Part shown: positions 8,105 through 60,760 of the stretch, piece by piece
Layout of the letters: each line of letters begins with the position of its first letter
Position numbering within the stretch: the stretch's first letter is position 1
Assembly: GCA_035714745.1 (NCBI GenBank)
Contig: DASTLR010000008.1
Coordinates: 7,394 to 71,393 of the forward strand
DNA: 64,000 nt
Direction of reading: 5' to 3'
Source of the DNA: Minisyncoccota bacterium
GTDB lineage: Bacteria; Patescibacteriota; Minisyncoccia; Phycocordibacterales; UBA6065
The notes under the pieces: generated by a model
The model's database searches: none
What the model was told of the DNA's origin: nothing
What the model saw: the letters and a program-made list of their open reading frames with translations, nothing else
Translations under genes and position numbers: made by a program

Positions 8105-10048
8105 GTGAACCACCTCGATAGCCTGAACGACCGACAGAGAGAAGCCGTGCTCAAGACCGAGGGTCCCGTGCTTATTCTGGCCGGCGCAGGGGCGGGCAAG
8201 ACCAAGACCATCACCCACCGTATCCTCCACCTCATAAAATCGGGGATAAAGCCCTCGAACATCCTGGCCATCACCTTTACCAATAAGGCTGCCAAAGAGA
8301 TGCGCGAGCGAGTCTTCGCCCTTATCAAGGGGGACAAGGAGTTGAACCTGCCCATATCCTTTGACGAAAGGCCGTTCGTCAGCACCTTCCACTCCCTGGG
8401 CGTCCACATCATCAAGGAGAACGCCCACCGCATAGGCCTGACCCGCCATTTCACCATTTTCGACCGTAGCGACTCGCGGCGGGCGATAAAAGAGGCCGTC
8501 ATGGAGCTCGGCCTCGACCCAAAGCAATACGACCCCAGCGTCATCCTCTCCGTCATCTCGCGGGAGAAGGGAAACGGCATCGGCTTGGACCGTTTTCAGG
8601 ACAGCGTCGGGAACGACTATATGAGAGAGGTCGTCTGGAAGGTCTGGCAGAAGTATGAGGCAGCGCTTCGCAGGGAGAAAGCCCTGGATTTCGACGACCT
8701 CCTTCTGCGCTCGGCCGAGATGCTCGAGAAGCATGCCGAAGTGCGAACTCATTACGAAAAAGCATGGAAGTACGTTCATATCGACGAGTATCAGGACACG
8801 AATAAGGTCCAGTACAAGATCGCCCGGCTCATCAGCGGCGAGACGAAGAACATCTGCGTGGTCGGCGACGTCGACCAGAACATCTACAGCTGGCGAGGCG
8901 CCGATATCAAGAACATCCTGAACTTCGAGCGCGACTATCCGGGAGCGGCCATGGTCACGCTCGAGGAGAACTACCGCTCGACCCAGACCATCCTGGAGGT
9001 GGCGAACCACATCATCCAGAAGAACAAGAACCGCTTCGAGAAGAATCTCTACACCAGGCGCGGGGAAGGAGACAAGATCCTCGTCTATAACGCCTTTGAC
9101 GAGAACGACGAGGCGCGCTTCGTGGCTGAAAAAGCGGCGGCCCTGATCGAGGGCGGCACCGATCCTCGCGAGATCGCCGTCCTTTACCGCGCCAACTTCC
9201 AGTCGCGCGCCTTGGAAGAGGCCATGATCGCCCGTGAAGTCCCATACCAAGTCCTGGGCGTGAAGTTCTTCGAGCGCAAAGAGGTGCGCGACGCGCTCTC
9301 ATACATCCGCGCCGCCCTGAACCGCGACTCGCTCTCGGACCTGCAGCGCGTCATAAACGTGCCCGCGCGCGGCATCGGCAAGGTGACGATAGCAAAGATC
9401 TTCTCGGGCATGATCGACAGCCTCTCGAACGCCCACGCCGAGAAGTGGAAGAATTTCAATCTGATACTCGACGACATCGCCGCCGCGGCCGGACGGGAGA
9501 AGCCGTCCGACCTGATCAAATTCGTCCTCAGGCGAACGGGTCTCGAGGACATGCTCAAGGCCGGCACCGACGAGGACCTGGAGCGCCTGGAGAACGTCCG
9601 CGAGCTGGCGACCCTGGCGACGAAATACGACTTCATGATGCCAGGGGAGGGGGTGTCAAAGCTCCTGGAGGACGCCGCCCTGGCCACCGATCAGGACGAG
9701 ATGGAGGAAGACAAGCCCGCAGCCAGGATGATGACGGTCCATGCCTCGAAAGGCCTGGAATTCGAGCACGTCTTCATCACCGGCCTCGAGCAGGACCTCT
9801 TCCCGCACCGCGGCATGGAGTCGTCGAAGCGCGAGAAGCGCGACGAGGAAGAGGAGCGCCGCCTCTACTACGTGGCTCTCACGCGAGCTAAAAAGAGGCT
9901 GTACCTGAGCCATGCCTCGATGAGGACTATCTTTGGCTCGCGCCAGGTGACCGTGCCGTCAGAGTTCGTCTTCGACATCCCGGAAAAATACCTAGAGACC
10001 GAGGAGCGGGCCCGCATCGGCGGGAAAGTGATATATTTCGACATATGA
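8105..10048 (+). CDS. pcrA: UvrD/PcrA-family ATP-dependent DNA helicase
   Basis: LNDRQREAV...AGAGAGKT, helicase motifs I-VI, the VHASKGLEFEHVF box and the C-terminal YVALTRAK motif. GTG start. Confidence 0.9.
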   Translation: MNHLDSLNDRQREAVLKTEGPVLILAGAGAGKTKTITHRILHLIKSGIKPSNILAITFTNKAAKEMRERVFALIKGDKELNLPISFDERPFVSTFHSLGVHIIKENAHRIGLTRHFTIFDRSDSRRAIKEAVMELGLDPKQYDPSVILSVISREKGNGIGLDRFQDSVGNDYMREVVWKVWQKYEAALRREKALDFDDLLLRSAEMLEKHAEVRTHYEKAWKYVHIDEYQDTNKVQYKIARLISGETKNICVVGDVDQNIYSWRGADIKNILNFERDYPGAAMVTLEENYRSTQTILEVANHIIQKNKNRFEKNLYTRRGEGDKILVYNAFDENDEARFVAEKAAALIEGGTDPREIAVLYRANFQSRALEEAMIAREVPYQVLGVKFFERKEVRDALSYIRAALNRDSLSDLQRVINVPARGIGKVTIAKIFSGMIDSLSNAHAEKWKNFNLILDDIAAAAGREKPSDLIKFVLRRTGLEDMLKAGTDEDLERLENVRELATLATKYDFMMPGEGVSKLLEDAALATDQDEMEEDKPAARMMTVHASKGLEFEHVFITGLEQDLFPHRGMESSKREKRDEEEERRLYYVALTRAKKRLYLSHASMRTIFGSRQVTVPSEFVFDIPEKYLETEERARIGGKVIYFDI

Positions 10049-10866
10049 TCGGCAAGCCGCAGAGATCGATAGCCGCCAAAAAATCCCTTGGCCAGAACTT
10101 CCTCATCTCGCCGCGCGTCGTCGAGGCCATCGCCGCGGCAGGAGAGCTAAGGGCAGAGGACGCCGTGATTGAAATAGGTCCGGGAAAGGGCGTATTGACC
10201 CGCGCGCTGCTCGCGAGCGGCGCGCGGGTCGTCGCCATAGAAAAGGATGACCGCCTTGTTCCCTTGCTCGCTGAAGAATTCAAACAGGAAATTGCCGCGG
10301 GCTGGCTACAGGTCGTTCATGGAGATGTTCTTGAGATCATGGCCGATAGCTCTCCTCTCCCTGAAAGCTGGCAGCTGAAAGCTGAAAGCTATAAAGTCAT
10401 CGCCAACATCCCGTACTACATCACCGGCCAGATCGTCAGGCTCTTCCTCTCGGCCAAGCAGAAGCCCGCGCTCATGGTCCTGATGGTCCAAAAGGAGGTA
10501 GCGGCCAGGGTCATCGCCCGCGACGGCAAGGAGAGCATCCTCTCGCTCTCGGTAAAAGCCTATGCCACGCCAGAGCTCGTCATGAACGTCTCGCGAGGGA
10601 ATTTCTTTCCCGTCCCGAACGTCGACTCGGCGGTCATCAAGCTTACGAATATACAAAACCCCTTTGCGGATAGAGCAGCGGAAGACCGCTTTTTTGAGAT
10701 AGTAAAGGCCGGCTTCTCGCAGAAGCGAAAGAAGCTTATCTCGAACCTGGAGGCGGTCATGCCGCGCGCCGAACTAGAAGCGAGGTTCGCCGCGCTCCGA
10801 CTCGATTCAAACGTGCGTGCCGAGGATGTACCGCTCGAGACGTGGATCGCCCTCGCCTCACGCTAG
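10045..10866 (+). CDS. rsmA: 16S rRNA (adenine1518/1519-N6)-dimethyltransferase
   Basis: KSLGQNFL...EIGPGKG...IANIPY, the KsgA signature. The ATGA start overlaps the pcrA stop. Confidence 0.9.
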   Translation: MIGKPQRSIAAKKSLGQNFLISPRVVEAIAAAGELRAEDAVIEIGPGKGVLTRALLASGARVVAIEKDDRLVPLLAEEFKQEIAAGWLQVVHGDVLEIMADSSPLPESWQLKAESYKVIANIPYYITGQIVRLFLSAKQKPALMVLMVQKEVAARVIARDGKESILSLSVKAYATPELVMNVSRGNFFPVPNVDSAVIKLTNIQNPFADRAAEDRFFEIVKAGFSQKRKKLISNLEAVMPRAELEARFAALRLDSNVRAEDVPLETWIALASR

Positions 10867-11255
10867 AATCCTGAAGATCCGACCGTCGAGGTGATCTTGC
10901 CCATGGCTGGGACGACGCTACAAGACGTGCCCACATAGATCTTGCACTGGCTCCTCGTCGTCGGATCGTACAGACCCAGTACCTTTGCGGCATAGGGGAG
11001 ATTCTTGTTGGCATACTTTTGCGTGCCGGCTTGATAGGTGAGCGTCACTTTGCTCGTGCCAGAAAAGATGGTCATGTAATAAACCCCGCTTGGACTGCAT
11101 GTACAAGGAAAAGAGAGGGGAAAAGTCGCCACAGTCCCTCCAAAAGGTACATCCTTGCCCACAATGTTCCCGAGAGTGAAAGCAAGAGCGCACACCGGCA
11201 GAGCAACGCCCGCAAGGATCGTTGCCGTCAGATATATTCTGCGTCTTATCATGCT
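10863..11255 (-). CDS. Hypothetical small secreted protein with a signal peptide (start at the internal Met MIRRRIYL)
   Basis: N-terminal signal-like segment ILAGVALPVCALA. No known motif. Confidence 0.35.
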   Translation of the reverse strand, partial: SMIRRRIYLTATILAGVALPVCALAFTLGNIVGKDVPFGGTVATFPLSFPCTCSPSGVYYMTIFSGTSKVTLTYQAGTQKYANKNLPYAAKVLGLYDPTTRSQCKIYVGTSCSVVPAMGKITSTVGSSGF

Positions 11256-11302
11256 CCCAGTATACCTCATACTGCAGTCGTGCGTGATATACTGGAGAGA
11301 CC

Positions 11303-12166
11303 ATGCGCGCTCTCCTGGGTTTCTTTGGGACAAAGATCGGCATCGCCGTCCTGGCGGCCATCGTCATCGTCGGCGCGGCAGCCGGATTCAAGTACAGCCG
11401 CTCGGCTCAGGAGAAGCAGAAAGGCGCCGCCACCCTCGTCGTCGAGCAGATCATCAAGGATTCCCTCAAGAACCTGAACGAGATAGAAGGGGACAGCGCC
11501 TTCGTCGCCTCGACCACCGGCCCAGACGACGCCGCTCCCCAGGAGCCGGCAGTGCCCTATACGGCTACCGACCGCTTCTCCCAGCAGATCTTCCGCGAAT
11601 ACATCTCGGCCAAGCAAAACGGCAAAGAGGTCGACGCCGACACCTCTGCCCGCATCGCCGAGAGCGTTCTTGCTCAAGATTATAGCGATAGAACGCCAGC
11701 CTACTCGGTTCTCGACCTCCATATCAGCGCCGACGAATCCGCCTCCTCTCTTAGAACGTACGGAAATAGCCTGGGAGCCATACTTTCAGCCCCGCCGGCG
11801 GCCAAAGAAAATGAATTAGAGATATTCCTCAAGCTCTCGTCAAAGTCGACAGACGACTATGGAAAAGAGCTGGCGGCCATACAAAAGCGCTATATTTCGA
11901 TGCGGACGGCGCTTTTGGCCCTGCCGGCGCCCAAAAGCTTTGCCGCGGCGCAGGTCGACATCCTTAATTCCCTCAACCTCTTCGTCGACGCCATAGACGG
12001 AGCGCTGAATATAGACGCTGACCCAATCGGGGCATTGAACAAGATAGCGCGGCATGACGACGGCATGACGGCCCTCCAAAAGGCCCTCGCTTCGATCAAA
12101 AAGACCTTCGCCGCAAAAGGCATGACCTTCGCGGCCAAAGAAAAAGGATTTATCCTCACAGAATAA
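11303..12166 (+). CDS. Hypothetical membrane-anchored protein
   Basis: An N-terminal TM helix (IGIAVLAAIVIVGAAAGF) followed by a soluble domain. It lies directly upstream of the T4SS-like locus. Confidence 0.4.
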   Translation: MRALLGFFGTKIGIAVLAAIVIVGAAAGFKYSRSAQEKQKGAATLVVEQIIKDSLKNLNEIEGDSAFVASTTGPDDAAPQEPAVPYTATDRFSQQIFREYISAKQNGKEVDADTSARIAESVLAQDYSDRTPAYSVLDLHISADESASSLRTYGNSLGAILSAPPAAKENELEIFLKLSSKSTDDYGKELAAIQKRYISMRTALLALPAPKSFAAAQVDILNSLNLFVDAIDGALNIDADPIGALNKIARHDDGMTALQKALASIKKTFAAKGMTFAAKEKGFILTE

Positions 12167-12195
12167 GGCCACATCGGTGGTATAATTTCCATATC

Positions 12196-14388
12196 ATGAA
12201 AGGCGGACTGCACCAAAAGATCGTTCTCTCGCTTCTCGTGCCCTTGCTCGCCGCCTCGAGCATGGTCTTTGGCACGGAAACCGCCTCTGCCGCCGTCGCG
12301 GGCTGTACCGCCAACGTCATCAGCGCCGCCGTAGGTAAAGGGGCGCTCGGAAAAGTGCTCGGCTCCGTCGTGCCGGTAGGCGACACCGTCACCAACATCG
12401 GCGTGACAGGCAGCTTCACCAAAGACTGCATCCTCACGCCGATCGCCATAAAGATGGCCCGCACCATGGCCAGGAACATCTCGAACAGCATCGTCAATTG
12501 GATCAATAGCGACTTCAAGGGCAAGCCTGCCTTCGTCACCGATTTCGGCAGCCTGGCAAAGGATAGCGCCGACGAGGTCATCGGCAACTTCATCTACGGC
12601 AGCGACTTGAACTTCCTCTGCCAGCCGTTCTCCTTCAAGATCCGCCTGGCCCTGGCCACGAAGTATCAGCAGCCCTTCCAGGAACAGATCCGCTGCCGCG
12701 TGACGGACGTGACCAAGAACGTCTCGAGCTTCGTCAAGGCAAACGGGGGAGCGGGCTGGAACAACTGGCTCGAGATCACCACTCAGCCGCAGAACAACGT
12801 ATACGGCGCATACCTGATGGCCGATTCCCAGCTTGCCCAGAACGTCCAGAGCGCCCTGAACGTCAAGAACGACCAGCTCAAGATGGGCAATGGATTCTTG
12901 GACTTCCAGGTCTGCGAGAAATGGATAGAGCCCGGAAAGTCGAGCGGCATCGTCGCAGACAGCGCAGCGTCGGCCGCGGCCCAGTCCAGCACCTATTCCT
13001 CGAGCCCCTTCAACTCGACGCTCCAGCCGACGAATACGAGTCTGACCGGCGGATCGCTGGGCGCGTCTGGAAATTCTCCACTCCAGGGCGCTAGCGTCGG
13101 CTTCGGCGTTCCTGTGACGGCCAACACCCTGCCTACCTTCAAAGACAGCGCCGGAAAGACCTTTGGAGTCGAGAAAACCTGCAGCAAATGGGTCACAAAG
13201 ACTCCTGGCGCCTATGTCGCCGAGCTCGGCAAGCCTGTGTTGGGCGGCTGGGCGGATCAGCTGAATCTCGCCACCGATATCGATCAGATCGTCGGAGCGC
13301 TCATCAACCACTTCGGGGAGAAGGTCGTGAGCGGCGCCCAAGGCTTCCTCGGGCTGTCGTCAAAGGGCGGCTACGCGCAGAGCAACCTGAACTATGCGCA
13401 GGCTTCCACATTCGCAGACGACGCCTCGAATCCCGAGAATGCCGGCCTGGGCGATGCCGGCGCCGCCGCTTCGGACAGCTTCTCGGCGCTCTTTTCGGCC
13501 ACCCAGGTCAGCCTGGGCGACAGCCTGGCGGCAGGCAAGGCGGTCTCGATGTCGAGCCCCGGCATCGGCAGCTCGGCATGGGTCGTCGACGGGGACACCG
13601 GCACGGCCGCCGCCACTGCCGAGACAGTCAATCCATGGATTGAGGTGGACCTGGGCGAGCCTGCAGAGATCAGGGAGATCCATATCTGGAGCCCTACCGA
13701 CCAGACACCGGCAGAAAGCGTCGGAACCTTTGACGTCGTCGTCTCGAAGTCGCAGGGCGGCCGCGACTGGGTCAGTCCGCAGGCTACGCAGACGGAGACC
13801 AGTCCGAACCCCGCCGTCGTCTCGGTAGGCCAGACCGGCAGATATATCAGGATAGAGCGCTCAAGGAACTCATACGAATGCGGCGACCCAGAGCAGGGCT
13901 CGCAGACCTGCTACTATCCGCTCCGAGTGGGGGAGATCGAGGTCGTCGGCCCTGCCGCCGGTACGGAACAAGACGGCGCAGCCCAGAGCGCGAGCGTCTC
14001 GTTCGGCACGCCGAGCGGGGCCACCTCTATCCGTCCTTCCTCGGCCTTCTCCTTTACCATCCCTGTCAACGCGACCTCCGAGACGAACATCGCCTTCGTA
14101 GAGGTCAGGCTCTACGCCGGAACCGAGCTCGCGCCGTTCGCCTCGGCCTTTTCCAACGGCTCGGTCGGCCTGAAACAGAGCGGCGCCACCCGCAACGTCT
14201 ATCCCGCAGGCGCTCCCGGCGTAGATTTCACGGGCGTTTCGGCCGGTCCGACCTCTGGAACCGCCATCACTGTCGCCGGTACCGCCCTGCCGCCGGGCGC
14301 CACGAGCGCGTACAAGATCGTGCTCACCGCCCGCGACGCAAATAGGGAAATCCTCGATACGGCTACTGTCAATTTCATAGTACAATAG
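12196..14388 (+). CDS. Large secreted protein with an F5/8 type C (discoidin) domain, a putative surface adhesin of the T4SS-like locus
   Basis: Signal peptide MKGG..LLAASSMVFG. The segment SAWVVDGDTGTAAATAETVNPWIEVDLGEPAEIREIHIW..RYIRIERS reads as a discoidin/F5-8C signature. Confidence 0.55.
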   Translation: MKGGLHQKIVLSLLVPLLAASSMVFGTETASAAVAGCTANVISAAVGKGALGKVLGSVVPVGDTVTNIGVTGSFTKDCILTPIAIKMARTMARNISNSIVNWINSDFKGKPAFVTDFGSLAKDSADEVIGNFIYGSDLNFLCQPFSFKIRLALATKYQQPFQEQIRCRVTDVTKNVSSFVKANGGAGWNNWLEITTQPQNNVYGAYLMADSQLAQNVQSALNVKNDQLKMGNGFLDFQVCEKWIEPGKSSGIVADSAASAAAQSSTYSSSPFNSTLQPTNTSLTGGSLGASGNSPLQGASVGFGVPVTANTLPTFKDSAGKTFGVEKTCSKWVTKTPGAYVAELGKPVLGGWADQLNLATDIDQIVGALINHFGEKVVSGAQGFLGLSSKGGYAQSNLNYAQASTFADDASNPENAGLGDAGAAASDSFSALFSATQVSLGDSLAAGKAVSMSSPGIGSSAWVVDGDTGTAAATAETVNPWIEVDLGEPAEIREIHIWSPTDQTPAESVGTFDVVVSKSQGGRDWVSPQATQTETSPNPAVVSVGQTGRYIRIERSRNSYECGDPEQGSQTCYYPLRVGEIEVVGPAAGTEQDGAAQSASVSFGTPSGATSIRPSSAFSFTIPVNATSETNIAFVEVRLYAGTELAPFASAFSNGSVGLKQSGATRNVYPAGAPGVDFTGVSAGPTSGTAITVAGTALPPGATSAYKIVLTARDANREILDTATVNFIVQ

Positions 14389-14393
14389 ACAGG

Positions 14394-16787
14394 ATGAGAA
14401 AGTTCCTGCCCCAATTCCTCCTTGCAACGACCGCGCTCGTCGGAGTAGGCTTCTTTTTCGCGCCGCATGAGGCGCACGCGTTCGAAGCGATAGACACCCT
14501 CGTGAAATTCCTGACCTTCAGCTCGGACATCGTCTATGGCACCCTGGGCAAGCTCTTCTGGTTCGGCACCGTGCCGATCACCAGCTTCGTGCTCTGGCTG
14601 GTCGGCATGATGATCGACCTGGCCACCAACCTCTCTCTGACTAACAATTTCTTTAACGCTCCCGCCATCGCCACGGCATGGAGCATCATCCGCGACCTCT
14701 GCAACATGGTCTTCATCTTCGTCCTGATCTGGGCGGGACTGAGGACCATCCTGAACCTCGGCAACGCGGTGACGGTCAAGAAGACCATCACCGGCGTGGT
14801 CATCGCCGCCCTTTTCATCAACTTCAGCCTCTTCATCACCAAAGCCATTATCGACGTCAGCAATATCGGCACGGCCTGGTTCGTCAAAGGCGTCGAGAAC
14901 GTCGGGGGAGGGACGAGCGTCAGCGATTCCGTGCGAAGCGTCCTCCAGATGAACAAGCTCGTCGAGAACAAGGACGCCGGCAAAGGCGCCTGGAGCCTGC
15001 AGTCGTTCGTCGCAGGCTTCGCCCTGACCATCTTGAACTGCGTCGCCATCTACGTGCTCTTCAAAGTCGCCTTCTTCCTGGTAGCCAGGATCGTATCGTT
15101 CTTCTTCTTGCTCGTCACCGCGCCGCTCGGCTTCGTCGGCGGGCTCGAGATACCGCAGCTCTCGGCCTATTCGAAGAAATGGTGGGACGAGCTCCGCAAC
15201 CAGGCCCTGATGGCCCCGATGTTCTTCCTCATGCTCTATATCACGCTCTACATCGTCGATCAGGTTGACGCTCTCGTCTTTGCCAACGGCGCGGCGAGCT
15301 CGGTCGATCCCGTCACTGGCTCCGGCTTCACCCCCGCGAACTACGTGATGTTCGCCATCATCGTCCTCATGCTCAATAAATGCCTCTCCACCGCCGAGGA
15401 ATACAGCGGCGAGCTCGGCGGCCAGATCGCGGGGTATCTCAAGAGCGCTACCTCATTCGTTGGCGGCGCGGCTCTCATGGGAACGGTGGGCCGGGCAGCT
15501 ACTTGGGCCAAGAATAACAAAAGCTTCCAAAGCCTCGCGGGCAGGAGCGCGATCGCCGGCGCTCTTTATGGCGGGACAACGAAAGTCGCCGAGTCTGGCT
15601 TCGGCGTAAAATCTAATTATAACCAGCTCGCAAAATCCACCGGCCTCAGCTCCATCGATCTGACTAAAAACGCGTTCAAAGGCGCAGACAGCTATGAGAA
15701 ACAGAGGAAATTCGAAATCGATGAGAAGAAGAAATTCGCCAAAACGCTTGGAAAGGGGCCTGAAGGGGAGGCTAACAGGATCGCATACGCCAATCGGCTG
15801 GACAAAGGCGTCTACGCTCAGACTGTCGGCAGGCTGACCGGAGACAAGGCCAACCTCAAGGAAGCCGCAAAGGATATGGCGAAAGACGCGAAGACGGCCA
15901 TGACCAAGGGAGTCAAAGACGACGCCAAGAAGAAAGCGACCGCGAAGCAGAATCAGGTTGTCGTAGCAGAAACCGTCCAGGGTATGCTCAAGAAGCCTAT
16001 GAACAGCGCCGACGTGGGCGAAGTCGACAAGGCAGCTAAATCCGGGAAGAAGCTCCTGGCAGAATTGAGGAAAGACCTCAAAGAAGAGAACAAGGACGAC
16101 TACCTGAAATTCGTAAGCGGATACGAGGAATCAAAAGGAAGAATAGATCCGGAGAGCAAGGCAGACAAAATCGGGATTGACATTGCCCGTCTCCAGACCG
16201 AGAAAATGGAAGCGGAATGGGCGTTGAATAGGAATCCTAAAGACAGAGACGCCGAGAAGAAATTCTCTGAGGTTAATGCAAAGATAGCTGAAAAGACCAA
16301 GGAGAAGGAAGAAGCAGCCGCTCAGGAGTCTAAACAGAGAGAGCGCTTCGCCGAGCTAGCTAAAAAGATAACCGCTGAGGATAGGAAAGAAGCTGCCAAG
16401 AAATTCTCTGGAATCTCCGCCAAAGAATGGACCAAGATAGCCGAGCAACAAGTCGCATACGAAGACGAGATCATCAAGAATATCGATGCCGCTGAAAAGG
16501 CCCTTGATAATGCGCTAGAGAAGGCGGAATACATAGGGACTAAGAAAGAGAACCTCATGGAGGCGCAAAAAGCCCTTGAGACCGTCATCGGAAAGACTCC
16601 GAAGTTCAAGGGCGGCAAAAAAGGTCAGCCGCGAGAAATCGACAAAGATAATCCAGGATCAGGCCTCAAGAAGCAGGCAGCCGATCTTAAAGAGAAGTTC
16701 AATGATAAGAACAAGGAGCTCACTATAGGCAAAGACGAACCAGAGAAAAAAGAGGAGAAACCTCCGGAAGCAGCTCCTTCTAAATAA
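14394..16787 (+). CDS. VirB6/TrbL-like polytopic membrane protein with a Lys/Glu-rich coiled-coil tail of about 400 aa
   Basis: At least six hydrophobic helices in the first 400 aa in a VirB6-like arrangement, followed by a low-complexity K/E/A-rich region. Confidence 0.55.
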   Translation: MRKFLPQFLLATTALVGVGFFFAPHEAHAFEAIDTLVKFLTFSSDIVYGTLGKLFWFGTVPITSFVLWLVGMMIDLATNLSLTNNFFNAPAIATAWSIIRDLCNMVFIFVLIWAGLRTILNLGNAVTVKKTITGVVIAALFINFSLFITKAIIDVSNIGTAWFVKGVENVGGGTSVSDSVRSVLQMNKLVENKDAGKGAWSLQSFVAGFALTILNCVAIYVLFKVAFFLVARIVSFFFLLVTAPLGFVGGLEIPQLSAYSKKWWDELRNQALMAPMFFLMLYITLYIVDQVDALVFANGAASSVDPVTGSGFTPANYVMFAIIVLMLNKCLSTAEEYSGELGGQIAGYLKSATSFVGGAALMGTVGRAATWAKNNKSFQSLAGRSAIAGALYGGTTKVAESGFGVKSNYNQLAKSTGLSSIDLTKNAFKGADSYEKQRKFEIDEKKKFAKTLGKGPEGEANRIAYANRLDKGVYAQTVGRLTGDKANLKEAAKDMAKDAKTAMTKGVKDDAKKKATAKQNQVVVAETVQGMLKKPMNSADVGEVDKAAKSGKKLLAELRKDLKEENKDDYLKFVSGYEESKGRIDPESKADKIGIDIARLQTEKMEAEWALNRNPKDRDAEKKFSEVNAKIAEKTKEKEEAAAQESKQRERFAELAKKITAEDRKEAAKKFSGISAKEWTKIAEQQVAYEDEIIKNIDAAEKALDNALEKAEYIGTKKENLMEAQKALETVIGKTPKFKGGKKGQPREIDKDNPGSGLKKQAADLKEKFNDKNKELTIGKDEPEKKEEKPPEAAPSK

Positions 16788-16793
16788 CCAGCC

Positions 16794-17309
16794 ATGGACA
16801 CACAACAAATAGCTGAAAAGATACTTTCGGTGGGAAAAGCCCATAGCCTGAACCTCGAACAGATCGGCATGCTCGAGAGCATCGTCAGAGACGTCGTTGA
16901 GGGCAGGACTTCAGCTGGGGACTTCGTCAGTAGCATAGAAGACGCACTGAACCTCGAAGACGACGAACTGACTTCGCTTGCCGCTGACATCAACCTTGAA
17001 GTGCTCATGCCTATCAGGGAGAGCCTGATCGAAGATCAGGCGAGCGATACAGAGGAAGACCTGACAGAAAAAGAAACCGACGACACCCGCGAATCCATCC
17101 TCGCCGAGATCGAGAATCCGAGCCCGACCGTCCATCCGATATCTGCCGCCGACCAGACGGTGGCGGGGCCTGCCGCGGCCAGGGAAGTGATCGCCGAGCG
17201 CCTGAGCCAGCCGGTCAGCTCGCCCGCCCAAACGATCGTCGTACCGCCGAAAGCGCCGGAAAAGCCCCGCGGCTACGCCGTAGATCCGTATCGCGAGCCG
17301 ATCAATTAG
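16794..17309 (+). CDS. Hypothetical acidic protein inside the T4SS-like locus
   Basis: Asp/Glu-rich ORF with no TM segment, tightly linked to its neighbours. Confidence 0.4.
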   Translation: MDTQQIAEKILSVGKAHSLNLEQIGMLESIVRDVVEGRTSAGDFVSSIEDALNLEDDELTSLAADINLEVLMPIRESLIEDQASDTEEDLTEKETDDTRESILAEIENPSPTVHPISAADQTVAGPAAAREVIAERLSQPVSSPAQTIVVPPKAPEKPRGYAVDPYREPIN

Positions 17310-17344
17310 ACGGCGGGCCCATGCCGGCATGCTAGACTATAGCC

Positions 17345-17791
17345 ATGCGTTTCCAGGTCCCTCAATTCATCGAGGTCGAGGACAAGATCTTCGGCCCTCT
17401 GACCATCAAGCAGTTCATCTACCTCCTGGGCGGGGCCGGCCTCTCCTTTATCGTCTATAGCTTCGTCGGCAACCTCTTTCTGAGCGCCGTCTTCATCGTG
17501 CCGATCATGGCCTTTGCCCTGGCTCTGGCCTTCTACAAAGTGAACGGCAAGCCCTTCATCAACGTCGTCGAGGCGGCCTTTACTTACTTCGTCAACAGCA
17601 AGCTCTATATCTGGAAGAAGGTCGACAAGGTCCCGGTAGCCAAGAACGCCCCGACCGCGGCAGGCGCCGCCTCGCCCGATTTCTATGTGCCAAAGCTGTC
17701 GGATTCCAAGCTCAAGGACCTGACCTGGTCGCTCGACATCAAGCAGAGCCAGAACCCCGCCCAGAACCAGAAAGGGAAGAGCAATTTCTAG
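17345..17791 (+). CDS. PrgI/VirB3-like small membrane protein
   Basis: Two TM helices (LGGAGLSFIVYSFVGNLFLSAVFIVPIMAFALALAF) sit directly upstream of the VirB4 gene, as in Gram-positive conjugation loci. Confidence 0.5.
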   Translation: MRFQVPQFIEVEDKIFGPLTIKQFIYLLGGAGLSFIVYSFVGNLFLSAVFIVPIMAFALALAFYKVNGKPFINVVEAAFTYFVNSKLYIWKKVDKVPVAKNAPTAAGAASPDFYVPKLSDSKLKDLTWSLDIKQSQNPAQNQKGKSNF

Positions 17792-17807
17792 ATGATATAC
17801 TTCTAAG

Positions 17808-18443
17808 ATGGCAGTGAACGCAAAAACGACCCAGGAATTCGTGCCGATCAAGGAGATCCGCCAGGGTGTGGTCATCCTCAAGGACGATTCCCTGCGGGGC
17901 ATCGTCATAGCCTCGTCCCTGAACTTCGCCCTGAAGTCCGCCGAGGAGCAGCAGTCGATCATCCTGCAGTTCCAGAACTTCCTGAACTCGCTCGATTTCT
18001 CCGTGCAGATCTTCATCCAGTCCCGAAAGCTCGACATCAGGCCCTATATCGCTCTATTAGAGAACAGACTCAAGGAGCAGGTGGGCGACCTCTTGAAAAT
18101 GCAGACGCGCGAGTACATCTCATTCATCAAGAACTTCACCGAGAGCCAGAACATCATGAGCAAGACCTTCTTCGTCGTGGTGCCCTATACTCCGGCACCG
18201 GTGAGCGCCAGCGGCATCGCCGACGTCCTGGGGAAAAAGAAGACGGCGACCGAGACGGCCGAGCAGCGCCTGGCCGAATTCGAGGAGCACAGGAGCCAGC
18301 TGGAGCAGAGGATGGGCGTGGTGACCCAGGGCCTGGTGCGCTGCGGCATCCGCACCATCGAGCTGGGCACCGAGGAGGTCGTCGAGCTCTTCTACAAGAT
18401 CTTTAACCCGGGCGATACGGAAAAGCCTATTCCACTTTCATAA
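17808..18443 (+). pseudogene. virB4: VirB4-family ATPase, N-terminal fragment of about 211 aa, separated from the rest of the gene by a stop plus a +1 frame change
   Basis: TQEFVPIKEIRQGVVILKDDSLRGIV matches the N-terminal motif of Gram-positive VirB4/TraE/Orf16 proteins. The ORF ends at TAA 4 nt before the next ORF, which is in another frame. Confidence 0.55.
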
Positions 18444-18447
18444 TCCT

Positions 18448-20250
18448 ATGGGAATATTCGATTTTCTAAAGAAGAAGAGCAAGGTAGAGATAGCTCCGAT
18501 CCTACCTCAAGAAATATACGAAGCGGGCGTCTTGGAATTAAAAGACGTCATCGCCCCGTCGGCCCTCAAGGTATCGCCGCGCGAGCTCTCCCTGGGTGAC
18601 AAGATCGTCAGGTCCTTCTTCGTCATCTCGTACCCGCGCTTCCTCTCGGAGAGCTGGTTCGCCCCGATCATCAACTTGGACAAGGTCTTCAACATCTCTA
18701 TCTTCATCCACCCGGTCGAGACGGCCAAGGTCCTCCGCCAATTCCAAAAGAAAGTAGCCGAGGTCCAGAGCCAGATCTCCATCAGGGAACAGAAAGGATT
18801 AGTGCGCGATCCGATGCTCGATACGGCATACCAGGACCTGGAATCGCTCCGCGACAACCTCATGCAGGCTCAGGAGAAGCTCTTCGACGTGGGCGTCTAT
18901 ATCTCGATCTACGGCGACAGCGCCAGCGAGCTGGACAAGACCGAGTCCGAGATCAAGTCGATCCTGGAGTCCAAGCTGGTCTACGTCAAGCCGGCCCTCT
19001 TCCAACAGGAGCAGGGCTACAAGAGCAACCTGCCGACAGCCACCGACCAGCTTTTGGTCCATTCCAAGCTGAATTCCAGCCCTCTTTCCAGTCTTTTCCC
19101 GTTCATCTCCTTCGACCTGACCTCGGACAAGGGCATCCTCTACGGCATCAACAGGCATAACTCGTCCCTGGTGCTCTTCGACCGCTTCTCGCTCGAGAAC
19201 TACAACTCCATCACCTTTGCCAAGTCCGGCGCCGGAAAGTCATACGCCACCAAGCTGGAGATCCTGCGAACGCTGATGTTCGACACCGACGTCATCGTCA
19301 TCGACCCCGAGAAAGAATACGAATACCTGGCCGAATCGACGGGAGGCAAATACTTCAACATCTCGCTCAATTCCGAGCATCGCATCAATCCCTTCGACCT
19401 GCCGCTGCCGCGCGAGGACGAGTCGCCAGCCGACGTCCTGCGCTCGAACATCATCAACCTGGTCGGCCTGTTCCGCATCATGATGGGCGGCCTGACGCCC
19501 GAGGAGGACGCCATCATCGACCGCGCCATCACCGAGACCTACGCCCTCAAGGACATCACCCCGGACACTGACTTCTCGCACACCGAGGCGCCGCTGCTCT
19601 CGGACTTCGAGCTGGTGCTCGCCGGCATGGAGGGAGGGGAGTCCCTGGTCCAGCGCCTGACGAAATACACCAAGGGCACCTGGTCCGGCTTCATCAACAG
19701 GCCGACGAACGTCGACATCGGCGCCAAATTCGTGGTCTTCTCGCTCCGCGACATGGAGGACGAGCTCAAGCCGGTGGCCATGTATATCGTCACCCACTAC
19801 ATCTCGAACGCCGTGAGGAAGAACGTCAAGAAGCGCCTGCTCGTCATCGACGAGGCGTGGTGGATGATGAAATCCGAAGACACGGCCTCGTTCCTCCTGG
19901 GCTTGGCCAAGCGCGGACGCAAGTATTTCCTAGGCCTGGCCACCATCACCCAGGACGTCGACGACTTCCTTAAATCGCCGTACGGCCTACCGATCATCAC
20001 CAACTCCTCGATCCAGGTCCTCCTCAAGCAATCGCCGTCGTCGATCGACCGTCTCCAGCAGGTCTTCAATCTCACCGACGAGGAGAAATACCTCCTCCTC
20101 GAGTCCGACGTGGGAGAGGGCATATTCTTCGTCGGCTTGAAACACGTGGCCATAAAGGTCATCGCCTCGTATACCGAGGACCAGATCATCACCTCGGACC
20201 CCGCCCAGATATTGGCTATAAAGGAAGCGAAGAAGAATCTGGCGCAGTAG
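18448..20250 (+). CDS. virB4: VirB4-family ATPase, C-terminal 600 aa piece with a Walker A box
   Basis: IAPSALKVSPRELSLGDKIVRSFFVISYPRF is the VirB4 mid-N-terminal motif. Later come the Walker A box AKSGAGKSY, a Walker B box LLVIDEAWWMM and the C-terminal TraC/VirB4 motifs. Confidence 0.8.
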   Translation: MGIFDFLKKKSKVEIAPILPQEIYEAGVLELKDVIAPSALKVSPRELSLGDKIVRSFFVISYPRFLSESWFAPIINLDKVFNISIFIHPVETAKVLRQFQKKVAEVQSQISIREQKGLVRDPMLDTAYQDLESLRDNLMQAQEKLFDVGVYISIYGDSASELDKTESEIKSILESKLVYVKPALFQQEQGYKSNLPTATDQLLVHSKLNSSPLSSLFPFISFDLTSDKGILYGINRHNSSLVLFDRFSLENYNSITFAKSGAGKSYATKLEILRTLMFDTDVIVIDPEKEYEYLAESTGGKYFNISLNSEHRINPFDLPLPREDESPADVLRSNIINLVGLFRIMMGGLTPEEDAIIDRAITETYALKDITPDTDFSHTEAPLLSDFELVLAGMEGGESLVQRLTKYTKGTWSGFINRPTNVDIGAKFVVFSLRDMEDELKPVAMYIVTHYISNAVRKNVKKRLLVIDEAWWMMKSEDTASFLLGLAKRGRKYFLGLATITQDVDDFLKSPYGLPIITNSSIQVLLKQSPSSIDRLQQVFNLTDEEKYLLLESDVGEGIFFVGLKHVAIKVIASYTEDQIITSDPAQILAIKEAKKNLAQ

Positions 20251-20266
20251 AGGCCTGTGGTACAAT

Positions 20267-21289
20267 ATGCGCATGTCGCGCTTAGCAAAAAGCACTTTCT
20301 TTATCCTATCTTCTCTGGTGTTCTTGGTGTTCTCTGTGCTCTCTGTCTCTTCCGTATCGGCCCAGGGCATCCCCGGCATCTCCGCTCCTCTCATCCTCAC
20401 CATGGAGCCAGCCAATCCCAAGCCGCTCCAGACCGTCAACCTCTCGCTAAAAAGCTTCAGCCTCGACATCGACAAGGCGTCCATATCATGGACCGTCAAC
20501 GGTAAAGTAGCCGCCCGCGGCATAGGCATGAAGGTCTTTAGCGTCCAGGCTGGGTCTTTGGGCTCCTCAAAGACCGTTGAAGCGGTGGTCGCCACCGACT
20601 CCGAGGGCGATTTGAGCCAGACGGCAGTCATCCGTCCGGCCGACCTGACCTTGATATGGCAGGCCGCGTCATACGTTCCGGCTTTTTACAAGGGAAAGGC
20701 CCTGCTTTCCTACGGCGGCGCCTACAAAGTCGTGGCATTGCCCGAGATCCTCGACGCGAACGGGCGAAAGATAGATCCGCGCACGCTCATTTACGCCTGG
20801 AAAAAGAACGAGGCGGCCCAGCAGGAGGCTTCAGGCTATGGAAAATCCTACTTCGTCAGCAGCCAGAGCAGCTTCGTCCGCCAGGGCGACGAGATCGCGG
20901 TCGAAGTGACCTCCCCGGCCGATGGCTTCACCGTCTCGGCGCAGACCACCGTCGTGCCGGTCGCCCCCGAGCTTCATTTCTATGAGGATAGCCCCCTGTA
21001 TGGCGTCGTCTTCGAGAAAGAGGCTGCGGGCAGGATGAAGCTGGCAAACGAGGAGGTCACGCTGGCCGCCGAGCCGTTCTTCTTTTCTGCTGTCGACAAG
21101 GGGAGCGCGCTCCTGGGCTACACGTGGACGCTCGGCGGGGCTGCGGTCCCGGAATTCCAGGATAAGCCCTCGATAACCCTGCGCCGCGCCACGGCGGCGG
21201 CCGGCTCGGCCTCTATCGGCCTGTCGGTAGGGAACAGCGCCAGGCTCCTGCAGGGCGCCGAACAGAGCCTTTTAATACAATATGAATAG
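20267..21289 (+). CDS. Hypothetical secreted protein of the T4SS-like locus
   Basis: Signal peptide LSSLVFLVFSVLSVSSVSAQG. The start is translationally coupled to the virB4 stop. No motif recognised. Confidence 0.45.
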   Translation: MRMSRLAKSTFFILSSLVFLVFSVLSVSSVSAQGIPGISAPLILTMEPANPKPLQTVNLSLKSFSLDIDKASISWTVNGKVAARGIGMKVFSVQAGSLGSSKTVEAVVATDSEGDLSQTAVIRPADLTLIWQAASYVPAFYKGKALLSYGGAYKVVALPEILDANGRKIDPRTLIYAWKKNEAAQQEASGYGKSYFVSSQSSFVRQGDEIAVEVTSPADGFTVSAQTTVVPVAPELHFYEDSPLYGVVFEKEAAGRMKLANEEVTLAAEPFFFSAVDKGSALLGYTWTLGGAAVPEFQDKPSITLRRATAAAGSASIGLSVGNSARLLQGAEQSLLIQYE

Positions 21290-22520
21290 GATGAAAAAAA
21301 CCTTTGCCGCCGTCGCATTCTCGCTCTACCTGGCGTTGGGCTTCGCGGCTGCCGCATCAGCTCAGGTAGATACCAACTACATACCTCTGACGACCGTTCC
21401 CGGCGCCTTTGAAGCCGGCAAGATCACGAACCCGGTAAAGGTAGTGGCGGGCGTCTACGGCATCGCCATCGGCATCGGATCGATCATCGCCGTCGTCATG
21501 ATCATCCTGGCCGGCTTCAAATATATGTACCAGGAGTCGATCGACGGCAAGTCAGACGCCAAAGAGCAGATCACCAACGCCTTCATAGGCCTCTTCGTCA
21601 TCCTCGGCTCGTATATCATCCTCAAGACCATCAATCCCGCGCTCGTCGACTTCGACGTCGAGCTCCGGGGCGGAAGCGGAAAGGTGTCCGGGCTCATCGC
21701 CATACAAAAGGAGCTCGATGCGACTCAATCAAAAGTAGCTCAAGCTAACGCCGCCACAGCCGAGCGGCAAAAAGAAATCGACGCTCTCAAGACTACGACT
21801 CTACCTAACAAGGAAAAAGAGATCCAAGCGATGAAAGACAGGATCGCAGCCGCAGAAAAGACAGCAGGCGGGCCGGGAAAAAAAGCCGTGCTCGACGAAC
21901 TTAATGGCCAACTCGCCAAGCTGGAGGGTGAGAAAGCCCAGATACTCGACACTATCAGCATAAAGACGATTGATAACCTAAAGACCATCGCCCAAAATAA
22001 TGTCACCCTTGGAAGAGACAATGTCTTCAAGAACGAGATCACCTCGCTCACCAAGATAACAGACCCGACCCAGGCTTCGGTTGAGGCAAGGGAATCCCTT
22101 CGAAGACTGGCGGTCCAGACAGACAGCCTTAAACTCGCGATGGAAAAGAAGATAGCCGAGGCCGAAACAATTGACGTAGCGATCGGCTCAAAAAGCGAGG
22201 TGGCTAAGCAAGAGTACTTCAATGCTGCCAACCAGGATTTGACATATATCAATCAATCAAAAAGCCTCATCACCGAAGCTCATGACACAATAAACGCCAA
22301 CTCTGGCGGTACAGACAAGCAAAATTCTGAATACAATGCGCTGCTCAGCAAATATGCGGGCTATGTTAAAGAACTTCAAGATTCCAATAGAAAGGACTTG
22401 GCAGACCGACTCCAAACCGATATTGATAGCGTGACCAAGATAATGAAAATCCGCCAAGCGGTGAATTGCGCGACATATGATGCGGCTCGTCGACAGCAGC
22501 TTACTCTCTGCCAACCATAG
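21282..22520 (+). CDS. VirB2/TrbC-like pilin-fold protein (signal peptide plus two TM helices) with a C-terminal coiled-coil extension of about 280 aa
   Basis: Signal peptide followed by two hydrophobic helices (VVAGVYGIAIGIGSIIAVVMIILAGF and AFIGLFVILGSYIILKTI), which is the TrbC/VirB2 topology. The rest is heptad-rich. Confidence 0.45.
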   Translation: MNRMKKTFAAVAFSLYLALGFAAAASAQVDTNYIPLTTVPGAFEAGKITNPVKVVAGVYGIAIGIGSIIAVVMIILAGFKYMYQESIDGKSDAKEQITNAFIGLFVILGSYIILKTINPALVDFDVELRGGSGKVSGLIAIQKELDATQSKVAQANAATAERQKEIDALKTTTLPNKEKEIQAMKDRIAAAEKTAGGPGKKAVLDELNGQLAKLEGEKAQILDTISIKTIDNLKTIAQNNVTLGRDNVFKNEITSLTKITDPTQASVEARESLRRLAVQTDSLKLAMEKKIAEAETIDVAIGSKSEVAKQEYFNAANQDLTYINQSKSLITEAHDTINANSGGTDKQNSEYNALLSKYAGYVKELQDSNRKDLADRLQTDIDSVTKIMKIRQAVNCATYDAARRQQLTLCQP

Positions 22521-22522
22521 CC

Positions 22523-23749
22523 ATGTCAAAGAAACTGTTCTTCTTCATCATACTGGCGGTCATCGCGGTCCTGGGCGTGGCGGGATGGTGGTTCCTGCGC
22601 CTACAGGTGGCGGCGCCGGCGGTACAGCAGCCTGACCAGACGGGGGAGGACCTCTTTCCTTTTGGCTCGGGAGCGGTAAAGCCGAGCGAGGCCAAGCCTG
22701 CAACCACCACCCAGCCTGTCTCGAACGTCACGGCTCCGACTTCGCCCGCGGCCCAGCCAAGGCTCCGCAAGCTCTCGTCCGAGCCTGCCGTCTCCGCGGC
22801 TTTCGTCTATTCAGCGACGTCGACGCGCGCCGTCCGCTTCGTCGACCGCGCCACGGGCCATATCCTGGAAGCGGCGGTAGATTCGGCCCTTCAGTCCACA
22901 CCGTCGAACGTCACCATCCCCCAGGTCAGGGAAGCGCTGTGGGGAGACAAGGCTTCGTCATTGGTCTATCGCTATCTGAAAGGCTCGACCGTCCAATCGT
23001 TCTACGCCGCTCTTAAATCCGGCACGGCGACGAGCTCCCAGCCGATCGAGGGCATATTCCTGCCGAGCGACATCCGATCGATGGCGGTGACCGGCGGCAA
23101 GATCCTCTATTTCGATCCTTCCGTCGAAAGCGGCCGCCTGATCATGGCGAATATGGACGGATCAAAGAAAGCCACGGTCTGGACCTCTGATTTCGGCGAG
23201 TGGGCAATCTCCTCGGTAAATCCCGCAAAGGCTTTCATATATACCAAACCGAGCGCCTCAGCTAACGGCGTCGGCTACATCGTCGACACTACAAAGGGCA
23301 CGGCTACGAAGGTCGTCGGCGACGCTGCCGGCCTCGAGGGTTCGATCGGCCCGTCCGGCGACTACGTCTTCCTCTCGGCCGCTTCGGGCTCGGGAATCGC
23401 TTCAGCGTCGTATTCGGCCGCCAAAAAGACGGTCAGCCAGCTCTCCCTGAGCACGCTAGCCTCCAAATGCGCCTGGAGCGGCGCATCGAAAAAGACGGTC
23501 TACTGCGGAATCCCTGCGAACCTTGAAAGCGCCGCATACCCTGACGACTGGTACAAGGGCTCCGTCAGCTTCTCTGACAGGCTCTGGAAGATCGACATGG
23601 AAACGGGAGAGACCGAGGTCGTCTTGGACCCCTTCCTCGACAGCCTGAACGAATTCGACATGACGAACCTGACGGTCGATCCGACGGATACCTATCTGGC
23701 CTTTGTGAACAAGAAAGACCTCTCGCTCTGGCTGTACAAGATCAAATAA
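22523..23749 (+). CDS. Hypothetical membrane-anchored extracytoplasmic protein, last gene of the T4SS-like locus
   Basis: N-terminal TM helix FFFIILAVIAVLGVAGWWF, a Pro/Thr-rich linker, then a beta-rich domain. Confidence 0.45.
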   Translation: MSKKLFFFIILAVIAVLGVAGWWFLRLQVAAPAVQQPDQTGEDLFPFGSGAVKPSEAKPATTTQPVSNVTAPTSPAAQPRLRKLSSEPAVSAAFVYSATSTRAVRFVDRATGHILEAAVDSALQSTPSNVTIPQVREALWGDKASSLVYRYLKGSTVQSFYAALKSGTATSSQPIEGIFLPSDIRSMAVTGGKILYFDPSVESGRLIMANMDGSKKATVWTSDFGEWAISSVNPAKAFIYTKPSASANGVGYIVDTTKGTATKVVGDAAGLEGSIGPSGDYVFLSAASGSGIASASYSAAKKTVSQLSLSTLASKCAWSGASKKTVYCGIPANLESAAYPDDWYKGSVSFSDRLWKIDMETGETEVVLDPFLDSLNEFDMTNLTVDPTDTYLAFVNKKDLSLWLYKIK

Positions 23750-24847: not shown

Positions 24848-24984
24848 TAGACGTTCACTATCCTGGCTCGGCCTTTGTGTCGCCTGCGAGCCATGACCTT
24901 CTTTCCGGTCGGAGTGCTCTTGCGAGCGAGGAATCCGTGAGCGCGGGCTCGCTTTCGGTTACGGGTTTTGTATACGATCGCCAT
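24847..24984 (-). CDS. rpmH: 50S ribosomal protein L34
   Basis: My hand translation of the minus strand gives MAIVYKTRNRKRARAHGFLARKSTPTGKKVMARRRHKGRARIVNV. It is absent from the ORF track because it is shorter than 60 aa. Its stop overlaps the rnpA start (TAATG). Confidence 0.85.
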   Translation of the reverse strand: MAIVYKTRNRKRARAHGFLARKSTPTGKKVMARRRHKGRARIVNV

Positions 24985-25094
24985 AAAAATCTTGTTAACA
25001 GCTTGTGAACATATTATTAACATATTTACTTCGCATTCACAAGTACTAAAATTCCTTAAAGCGACTATACTTAATCCACTTCATCCGAGAGATC

Positions 25095-60757: not shown

Positions 60758-60760
60758 TCT

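Follow-up and report, generated by a model that had tools for sequence, protein, structure and literature searches.

The 64-kb window analyzed here (the whole stretch of 64,000 nucleotides (nt) from a Minisyncoccota bacterium) contains a locus at 11303-23749 on the plus strand that very probably encodes a vertically inherited, chromosomal type IV secretion system (T4SS) of the Paceibacteria/Parcubacteria, a derivative of the MPF_FATA class without a link to DNA mobilization. The evidence for this lies in the gene content of the locus, the families of its VirB4, TrsD, PrgI and pilin proteins (and, more weakly, of VirB6), its synteny and its strong conservation. The locus is a cluster of ten co-oriented genes, spaced 1-35 nt apart or overlapping slightly, that is situated between ksgA and a minus-strand yidC-rnpA-rpmH block, with dnaA and dnaN beyond. 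An initial annotation, made from the letters and open reading frames (ORFs) of the window without database searches, had described genes in tight succession, and all of the genes it described are indeed present on the plus strand. The ten genes are as follows (aa, amino acids):

11303-12166 (+): bitopic membrane protein of 287 aa at the start of the cluster, with a transmembrane segment at aa 5-23 and a helix-rich ectodomain
12196-14388 (+): secreted discoidin protein of 730 aa, with an N-terminal hydrophobic segment and an F5/8 type C/NedA-like discoidin domain
14394-16787 (+): extended VirB6-like polytopic membrane protein of 797 aa, based on indirect Pfam matches and fold
16794-17309 (+): acidic protein of 171 aa, probably cytoplasmic, with 35 D+E versus 13 K+R and no transmembrane segment
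17345-17791 (+): PrgI/VirB3-like protein with two transmembrane segments, membrane partner of VirB4 (Pfam PrgI, PF12666)
17808-18443 (+): TrsD-like protein of 211 aa, the VirB4 N-terminal domain as its own polypeptide (NCBIfam TrsD, 2.1e-5)
18448-20250 (+): VirB4 ATPase (C-terminal motor part), the T4SS signature protein, based on NCBIfam, Pfam and Walker motifs
20267-21289 (+): secreted or anchored beta-rich protein of 340 aa with an N-terminal hydrophobic segment
21282-22520 (+): VirB2-like T4SS pilin (Pfam T4SS_pilin), with a signal segment and two transmembrane helices (aa 1 to ~125) followed by a ~287-aa tail
22523-23749 (+), last gene of the cluster: 408-aa protein with a transmembrane anchor at aa 5-23, a Pro/Thr/Ala-rich linker and a C-terminal domain

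The VirB4 ATPase matched the NCBIfam equivalog conju_CD1110 (the Clostridioides difficile CD1110 family) at 1.1e-108, with 364.6 bits relative to a cut-off of 325, and also matched Pfam P-loop_TraG (1.9e-26) and AAA_10. Its Walker A motif (GAGKS) is at aa 261 and its Walker B motif (LLVIDE) at aa 464. The initial annotation had given this protein a Gram-positive-type N-terminus; the ATPase was as described, but the N-terminal domain is encoded by a separate gene, that of the TrsD-like protein. The latter aligned to a full-length VirB4 model over positions 101-233 (6.4e-11) and to the CD1110 model (NCBIfam) over positions 2-119, and it has a precomputed Pfam match to the TraC-like family PF26593. 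Its gene stops at a TAA located 4 nt ahead of the virB4 ATG. Since a separate ORF of 202-221 aa is present in nearly all of 77 related loci, the split between TrsD and VirB4 is considered to be ancestral rather than the result of a frameshift or a sequencing error. The proposed membrane partner of VirB4 was found as had been described, with PF12666 matched at 7.5e-12 (46.1 bits versus a cut-off of 27) and transmembrane segments at aa 24-42 and 44-62.

We also considered whether a suppressor tRNA might cause read-through or recoding where TrsD meets VirB4, and this was ruled out by the separate TrsD ORF in the 77 loci and by the identity of the tRNA. At 42244-42317 (+) ARAGORN reported a "tRNA-Stop", the UUA anticodon of which would make it an ochre suppressor. 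By canonical numbering the anticodon loop of this tRNA is CUUUUAA and its anticodon is UUU, making it a tRNA-Lys; ARAGORN had placed the anticodon stem one base off, and there was no sign of recoding.

The pilin was also identified directly: aa 1-133 matched Pfam T4SS_pilin with 27.6 bits (gathering score 26.6), and among 41 orthologues the same family was matched by 39 and TrbC/VirB2 by eight. The tail is coiled-coil-like and rich in K, E, A, Q and L, in keeping with the 280-aa coiled-coil extension on a VirB2/TrbC-topology pilin that had been proposed, and it is poorly conserved and of variable length, the orthologues being 140-473 aa long, one 784-aa over-extended call aside. Hidden Markov model (HMM) searches thus upheld the VirB4, VirB3/PrgI and VirB2 assignments, and the E-values of the HMM matches are much lower than chance would give.

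The identity of the VirB6-like protein was reached less directly. It has six hydrophobic segments (aa 1 to ~400) followed by a 397-aa Lys/Glu/Ala-rich tail with 75 K and 46 E, which corresponds well to the polytopic protein with a Lys/Glu-rich tail of roughly 400 aa in the initial annotation. Pfam TrbL/VirB6 was matched by five of 36 orthologues (best 7e-5) and by P0071, a homologue that is 52% identical to the protein of the window. An AlphaFold model of aa 1-420 had a pLDDT of 63.5 and a pTM of 0.57, from an alignment of eight sequences; the homologue search gave seven proteins even when started from a 36-sequence profile. When this model was compared by Foldseek with 350,542 PDB chains, the three best matches were all TrwI/VirB6 chains of the R388 stalk complex (8rt9_F, 8rtd_L and 7o3v_F, their identity as TrwI/VirB6 being checked by sequence), with probabilities of 0.99-1.0, E-values of 0.01-0.04 and TM-scores of 0.27-0.43. 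Searching the sequences of solved structures with the VirB6-like profile gave no direct match. Based on the concordance between the Pfam hits of its relatives and the fold of the model, we indirectly assigned the 14394-16787 protein as a probable VirB6. With its charged tail, it fits the "extended VirB6" category of a 2025 FEMS nomenclature review (PMC12857230).

For comparison by tblastn, 80 loci were fetched around the best VirB4 relatives in species-representative genomes. These best 80 VirB4 matches were all from metagenome-assembled genomes (MAGs) of Patescibacteria, were 79-94% identical to VirB4 of the window and carried the labels Paceibacterota, Parcubacteria, Taylor-, Zambryski- or Campbellbacteria, or a generic "Saccharibacteria". 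For every gene of the locus the closest relatives were in Paceibacteria/Parcubacteria MAGs. The gene order was the same in essentially every 21-kb locus: uvrD, ksgA, the 287-aa protein, the secreted protein, VirB6, the acidic protein, PrgI, TrsD and VirB4, followed by the 340-aa protein, the pilin, the 408-aa protein, yidC (-), dnaA and dnaN. What the initial annotation had called an unusual accessory gene set is instead a syntenic set conserved across the class, with the same order recurring in ~45 Paceibacteria genomes.

To compare conservation among genes, identities relative to the proteins of the window were determined for the 45 loci that had complete virB4, dnaA and dnaN. VirB4, TrsD, PrgI and the 340-aa and 408-aa proteins were present in 45 of 45 loci, and the other genes were detected in 19-42 of the 45. 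The median identities were 82% for VirB4, 65% for TrsD, 61% for DnaA, 57% for PrgI, 50% for DnaN, 48% for YidC, 47% for KsgA, 33% for the 340-aa protein and 30% for the 408-aa protein. VirB4 was more conserved than DnaA in all 45 loci, and although the margin is inflated by the selection of these loci for VirB4 similarity, the direction of the difference is striking.

The setting of the locus is that of a chromosome. The window has ~58% GC and its housekeeping genes encode a CCA-adding-type enzyme, a ComM-like ATPase, UvrD, KsgA, YidC, DnaA, DnaN, PBP1A, TyrRS, RuvA, RuvB, PolA and a Mur ligase; the GC content of the locus (0.54-0.61) is that of its housekeeping flanks. The immediate neighbors of the cluster, arranged in the same way in 45 loci, are the following:

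10045-10866 (+): ksgA/rsmA, 16S rRNA dimethyltransferase (Pfam RrnaAD, 4.9e-54), the upstream flank, at the same place in related loci
23762-24505 (-): yidC (Pfam 60KD_IMP)
24527-24847 (-): rnpA, named by eye from the ORF translation
24847-24984 (-): rpmH, named by eye from the ORF translation
25095-26438 (+): dnaA (Pfam Bac_DnaA)
26722-27822 (+): dnaN (Pfam DNA_pol3_beta)

The origin of replication (oriC) was assigned from the rpmH-rnpA-yidC/dnaA-dnaN arrangement, and GC skew was not used because in this window it tracks the coding strand. The T4SS cluster, together with uvrD and ksgA (2786-23749), is transcribed toward the presumed origin in the rpmH/dnaA gap (24985-25095), which, if the origin is so placed, is head-on to the leftward replication fork; this orientation is kept in related loci. 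Between ksgA and the cluster there is a small gene (10866-11252, -) for a Cys-containing secreted protein of ~129 aa, which is kept at the same place in loci L003, L028, L043 and L077 with 34-41% identity. The single gene at 10863-12166 in the initial annotation is in reality this minus-strand gene plus the separate plus-strand gene at 11303-12166.

A sigma-70 promoter and terminator scan of the T4SS locus was not informative. In 14 of 31 genes, versus 1.1% of random positions, the start codon is preceded at a distance of 0-9 nt by a -10-like hexamer, TA[TCG]A[ACT]T, and the starts with such a hexamer directly upstream include 12196, 14394, 17808, 20267 and 21282. Shine-Dalgarno-like cores were at background (4 of 31 genes versus 14%). 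These patterns suggest that leaderless transcripts may be widespread and that most of the T4SS genes may have their own promoter instead of sharing one long operon mRNA.

None of the components that would link the locus to DNA mobilization were identified. No VirD4/type IV coupling protein (T4CP), relaxase or VirB1-type hydrolase domain was found among 40 ORFs of the window scanned with Pfam, in agreement with the initial annotation, although the relaxase result does not cover a small relaxase in the unscanned ORFs of 150-330 aa. The same 40 ORFs gave no match to a VirB8 family. No coupling protein was found in the window as a whole, every ORF of at least 400 aa being judged to be assigned to another function. 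There is no integrase at the locus and no compositional shift; flanking direct repeats were not searched for. As such, an ordinary integrative and conjugative element (ICE) is excluded as far as the 64-kb window permits, and the view in the initial annotation of a monoderm-type, chromosomal, non-conjugative T4SS next to oriC is supported by the lack of a relaxase, T4CP or integration signature at the locus, by its housekeeping flanks and by its HMM-backed core.

The sole mobile-element signature in the window is an island at a tRNA-His gene, 30 kb from the T4SS locus. Directly after this tRNA gene (53827-53899) the GC content falls from ~0.6 to 0.38-0.47. The island (53827-64000) begins with genes for a large serine recombinase (53889-55490, -) and for a zinc-ribbon protein, and contains a LOOT RNA (RF03000, 56049-56168, 84 bits), a copper P-type ATPase (60761-63052) and several genes without a family match. 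It looks like an integrated island that runs past the end of the window and is unrelated to the T4SS.

The initial annotation had also noted that most of the accessory proteins have no recognizable family, and no direct family match (Pfam, NCBIfam) was obtained for them other than the discoidin domain of the 12196-14388 protein. That protein is large and secreted, as had been proposed; its discoidin domain spans aa 457-554 (Pfam, 5e-12 and 1e-9) and is followed by a beta-rich tail. A conserved N-terminal module (aa ~61-240 and 331-390, with a variable insert between) is followed by an unconserved C-terminal part, in which the homologues have discoidin domains, PKD or Ig-like domains, or none that was detected. 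The family is very large, comprising 6258 clusters at 50% identity with E<=1e-3, and 4161 with E<=1e-30, in a profile search of 1.84 billion representatives. DUF4141 was the sole recurring Pfam family among its members (13 of 90, best 8.4e-10); in three members that were checked the match covered ~40 aa after the signal peptide, with 18-25 bits versus a cut-off of 30, and all of these matches, at the mature N-terminus, were below Pfam's cut-off. The protein of the window itself has no DUF4141 match. Judging from gene order, DUF4141 would correspond to TraI, the protein of Bacteroides conjugative transposons encoded between traG (VirB4) and traJ (VirB6), and TraI_CTnDOT has been reported to be homologous to VirB5 (Guglielmini et al. 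2014, PMC4027160). No similarity of the 12196-14388 protein to TrwJ/VirB5 was detectable and fold searches with it were uninformative. We consider this protein to be a candidate VirB5/TraI-like surface or tip adhesin.

For the 287-aa protein there was no match in Pfam, NCBIfam or PDB sequences, nor anything in PDB profile searches. Orthologues occupy the same position in 31 related loci, and nine of 29 have one or two bacterial thrombospondin type 3 (TSP3, Ca-binding) repeats just past the transmembrane segment, among them L006 1051-2019, L013 625-1599 and L022 2370-3431. The copy in the window is without TSP3 repeats, having either lost them or never had them. Because the repeats follow the transmembrane segment in those nine orthologues, the ectodomain is assigned to the extracytoplasmic side.

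The acidic protein, the composition of which was as the initial annotation had claimed, has no family match (Pfam, NCBIfam). A conserved N-terminal domain is joined by a Pro-rich linker, which varies, to a C-terminal DPYREPI that is nearly invariant; a DPYRE(P)I-type end was present in 24 of 26 orthologues (loci L001-L074), and when the window is translated in all six frames DPYREPI occurs only once. The motif looks like a short docking motif and the protein is possibly an adaptor.

Two secreted proteins had been proposed downstream of virB4, and the 340-aa and 408-aa proteins do each have an N-terminal hydrophobic segment. The signals for the 340-aa protein were weak and Ig-like, with T4 Hoc at an E-value of 0.003 in the PDB profile search and, when its family was scanned together with two others, BiPBP_C, Ig_3, PKD_3 and Big_2 in a small number of the proteins; it is probably a string of Ig-like domains. 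Those for the 408-aa protein were weak and propeller-like (TolB, E-value of 0.018 in the PDB profile search; DPPIV_N, PD40 and DUF5050 in five of 41 orthologues), and a beta-propeller is the probable fold of its domain. Most related loci have an extra gene directly after virB4, encoding a small multi-transmembrane protein that is at times acidic-tailed (e.g., L017 11799-12272, L050 11866-12237 and L009 12281-13300). The window and its closest relatives, L001-L006, are without this gene, and in the window the 340-aa gene starts 16 nt after virB4. A VirB1-like hydrolase was considered for the extra DNA of the relatives and was ruled out, as the encoded product is this small multi-transmembrane protein.

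Several points weigh against the assignment of the locus as a vertically inherited, non-mobilizing T4SS. Neither a VirB8-like nor a VirB1-like component was recognized among the locus proteins in sequence-level searches, and the negative results for the coupling protein and relaxase hold for the 64-kb window only and not for the rest of the genome. The VirB6-like protein of the window has no direct VirB6 match in Pfam or by HMM, its fold match is weak at the values given above, and hhalign of its profile against TrwI gave an E-value of only 0.015. A pilin bearing a 287-aa extension may not polymerize as VirB2 does. To these can be added the selection bias in the VirB4 comparison and the fact that the case for this organism is a computational one.

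If the locus is such a T4SS, its proteins could work together as follows. The motor would consist of the VirB4 ATPase and the TrsD-like N-terminal protein, docked on the two-transmembrane PrgI/VirB3 protein and the extended VirB6, with the polytopic VirB6 serving as a channel in the membrane or as a platform for assembly. Together with VirB4, VirB6 would feed the VirB2-like pilin, drawn from the membrane, into a filament or short conduit across the thin monoderm wall. In the structures of VirB2 and F pilins both termini of the pilin face outward, and for this reason the coiled-coil C-terminal extension would be expected to decorate the exterior of the filament. The 12196-14388 protein is the foremost candidate for an adhesin at the tip or on the surface, and it may select the host cell via its exchangeable C-terminal domain, the discoidin domain presumably being of a sugar- or lipid-binding type. 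The Ig-like, the anchored beta-propeller-like and the bitopic 287-aa proteins may form an extracytoplasmic, wall-spanning scaffold, and the acidic DPYREPI protein may be a cytoplasmic accessory factor. We propose that the machine links an epibiont to its host cell by direct contact and moves macromolecules, and that it is probably indispensable in this organism.

There is support for elements of this proposal in other Patescibacteria. The T4SS was essential by transposon sequencing in Southlakia epibionticum (Wang et al. 2023, as summarized in PMC12857230), and the presence of VirB2-like pilins in such systems has been taken as a hint that a monoderm may build a pilus (PMC12857230). For a Minisyncoccota parasite in culture, tubular parasite-to-host structures, possibly T4SS pili, and uptake of host RNA are reported in a 2026 preprint (bioRxiv 10.64898/2026.06.21.733656). 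A 2024 perspective described the role of the Patescibacteria T4SS as "completely unknown" and floated effector delivery or nucleotide uptake (PMC11665869). The window also has genes of the type IV pilus, the other surface machine reported to be essential in Saccharibacteria, including a PilB-type T2SSE ATPase and PilM (35061-36737 (-) and 49885-50880 (+)).

As to what such a machine transports, one possibility, a sub-hypothesis of the T4SS assignment and not a competitor to it, is that it takes up host DNA, as do ComB of Helicobacter pylori and the archaeal Ced system, or RNA or other macromolecules, and thereby feeds a cell unable to make nucleotides. We regard this as possible although on balance rather unlikely. 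Its favorable points are that the locus, like ComB, lacks a coupling protein (PMC12857230), that VirB4 is weakly similar to the DNA-import ATPase CedB of the Ced system (NCBIfam, 2.9e-8, far below the cut-off), and that the extreme conservation suits a housekeeping nutritional role. Acquisition of nucleotides has moreover been proposed given that competence was dispensable but the T4SS essential in Southlakia (PMC11665869), and the host-RNA uptake and tubular connections of the cultured Minisyncoccota strain (bioRxiv 10.64898/2026.06.21.733656) point the same way. Conversely, the sequence gives no direction of transport, and the locus has no ComB-type outer components, no nuclease and no nucleic-acid-binding domain in its proteins (Pfam/NCBIfam).

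Export of effectors into the host, or a purely adhesive role in the manner of the Bartonella Trw pili and adhesin display, would make sense of the surface proteins, in which exchangeable discoidin, PKD and Ig-like domains are set on a conserved module, and of the variable, exposed tail of the pilin. Trw-type systems likewise do without a T4CP and rely on variable VirB2/VirB5 (PMC12857230), and delivery of effectors has been proposed for Saccharibacteria (PMC11665869). However, the locus has no candidate effector or immunity genes and one pilin gene in place of an array, adhesion alone hardly explains an ATPase more conserved than DnaA, and export of folded proteins without a coupling protein requires a two-step route for which there is no supporting evidence. 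We consider a role of this kind unlikely.

An improbable but attractive combination of these ideas is that of a pilus-building monoderm T4SS unlike others, in which a VirB5/TraI-derived tip protein docks on VirB6 by its N-terminal module while a lineage-swapped C-terminal domain (discoidin, PKD, Ig-like or coiled coil) sets the host range, the whole being a housekeeping organelle that feeds on host macromolecules such as RNA. If this were true, the 12196-14388 family of >6000 clusters would supply the "adhesin/VirB5" that is missing from the phylum as a whole, and the DPYREPI protein would be a new cytoplasmic adaptor in place of a coupling protein.

The remaining alternative, that of an integrated conjugative element or its decaying remnant near oriC, serving now or once in cell-to-cell DNA transfer, is largely refuted and in our view very hard to credit: it can draw on the membership of VirB4 in a family of conjugative ATPases of Gram-positive ICEs (the conju_CD1110 equivalog, above cut-off), on PrgI and TrsD being conjugation-plasmid families and on the mobile island with its serine recombinase, albeit 30 kb away, but it is contradicted by the missing relaxase, T4CP and integrase at the locus, by the GC content shared with the flanks, by a placement among housekeeping genes and a gene order that are identical across ~45 genomes from different genera, by VirB4 being more conserved than DnaA, the opposite of what a decaying element would show, and by the scarcity of relaxases, which were found in 103 of the 3,035 Patescibacteria genomes surveyed and rarely near virB4 (PMC12102498).

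The locus leaves the existing picture of the Patescibacteria T4SS unchanged and is a textbook Paceibacteria case. That picture matters in that Patescibacteria may account for a quarter of the diversity of bacteria, and no T4SS before theirs had been shown to be essential to the cell carrying it. What our analysis adds is the conservation of VirB4 relative to DnaA, the traits of the 12196-14388 family and the DPYREPI motif. The locus is useful as a reference for the class-specific set of ten syntenic genes, five of them without a described family, and it provides several leads: a large secreted family with swappable binding domains, which is a candidate host-recognition subunit, a long-tailed pilin and an acidic protein with an invariant C-terminal peptide. 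In the survey of 3,035 Patescibacteria genomes by Quiñonero-Coronel et al. 2025 (PMC12102498) no adhesins were detected and genes without a family match were drawn in grey; the 12196-14388 family is a candidate to fill this adhesin gap.

The locus was also compared with the closest known systems. With H. pylori ComB, Bartonella Trw and Bordetella pertussis Ptl it has in common the absence of a coupling protein at the locus and a non-conjugative function, but those are diderm systems with VirB7-B10 cores and share only the VirB2, VirB3, VirB4 and VirB6 families with it. Like the VirB systems of R388 and Agrobacterium (MPF_T), it has a pilin of VirB2 topology with Pfam matches and a VirB6-like protein for which TrwI is the nearest fold, and, as in VirB operons, a secreted-protein gene is immediately upstream of virB6, in the place of virB5. 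Unlike them, it has no VirB7-B11, its VirB6 has the 397-aa charged tail, its pilin is three to four times the length of VirB2, and the upstream secreted protein has no detectable similarity to TrwJ/VirB5, the DUF4141/TraI motif being the sole link.

The monoderm MPF_FATA systems (pCF10 Prg/Pcf, pGO1 Trs and C. difficile CTn2 CD1110) share with the locus a CD1110-family VirB4, PrgI, TrsD and the absence of an outer-membrane core. In contrast to them, none of a relaxase, T4CP (PcfC/VirD4), VirB1-like hydrolase (PrgK/TrsG), PrgB-type adhesin or recognizable VirB8-like protein (PrgL/PrgD) was found here, and the locus is chromosomal, vertically inherited and has a VirB2-like pilin, which the Gram-positive systems are without. 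Within the Patescibacteria, the locus differs from that of Southlakia epibionticum ML1 in having one pilin gene with a ~287-aa extension, whereas Southlakia has an array of six short pilins, and in having no peptidase/lysozyme genes downstream of virB4. It also differs from the described Patescibacteria T4SS in its five conserved Paceibacteria accessory proteins, which have no described counterparts.

In its core, however, the locus correlates well with the T4SS of the Patescibacteria clade. The survey cited above placed Patescibacteria VirB4 in a monophyletic clade nested in MPF_FATA. In it, TrsD was the commonest of the accompanying components, genes for PrgI/VirB3, VirB6 and VirB2-like pilins lay close to virB4, and relaxases were almost absent; it also reported that the T4SS of Paceibacteria and Microgenomatia adjoin dnaA, dnaN, ksgA, rnpA and rpmH (PMC12102498). 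The locus has the same MPF_FATA-type VirB4 with a separate TrsD, the same PrgI/VirB3, VirB6 and VirB2-like pilin near virB4, the same lack of a relaxase or T4CP and the same neighbors. The likeness to the T4SS of ultra-small epibiotic bacteria seen by the initial annotation was therefore real, but had already been published (PMC12102498, PMC12857230), and the locus is a typical example of the standard Paceibacteria version of the T4SS described in 2023-2025.

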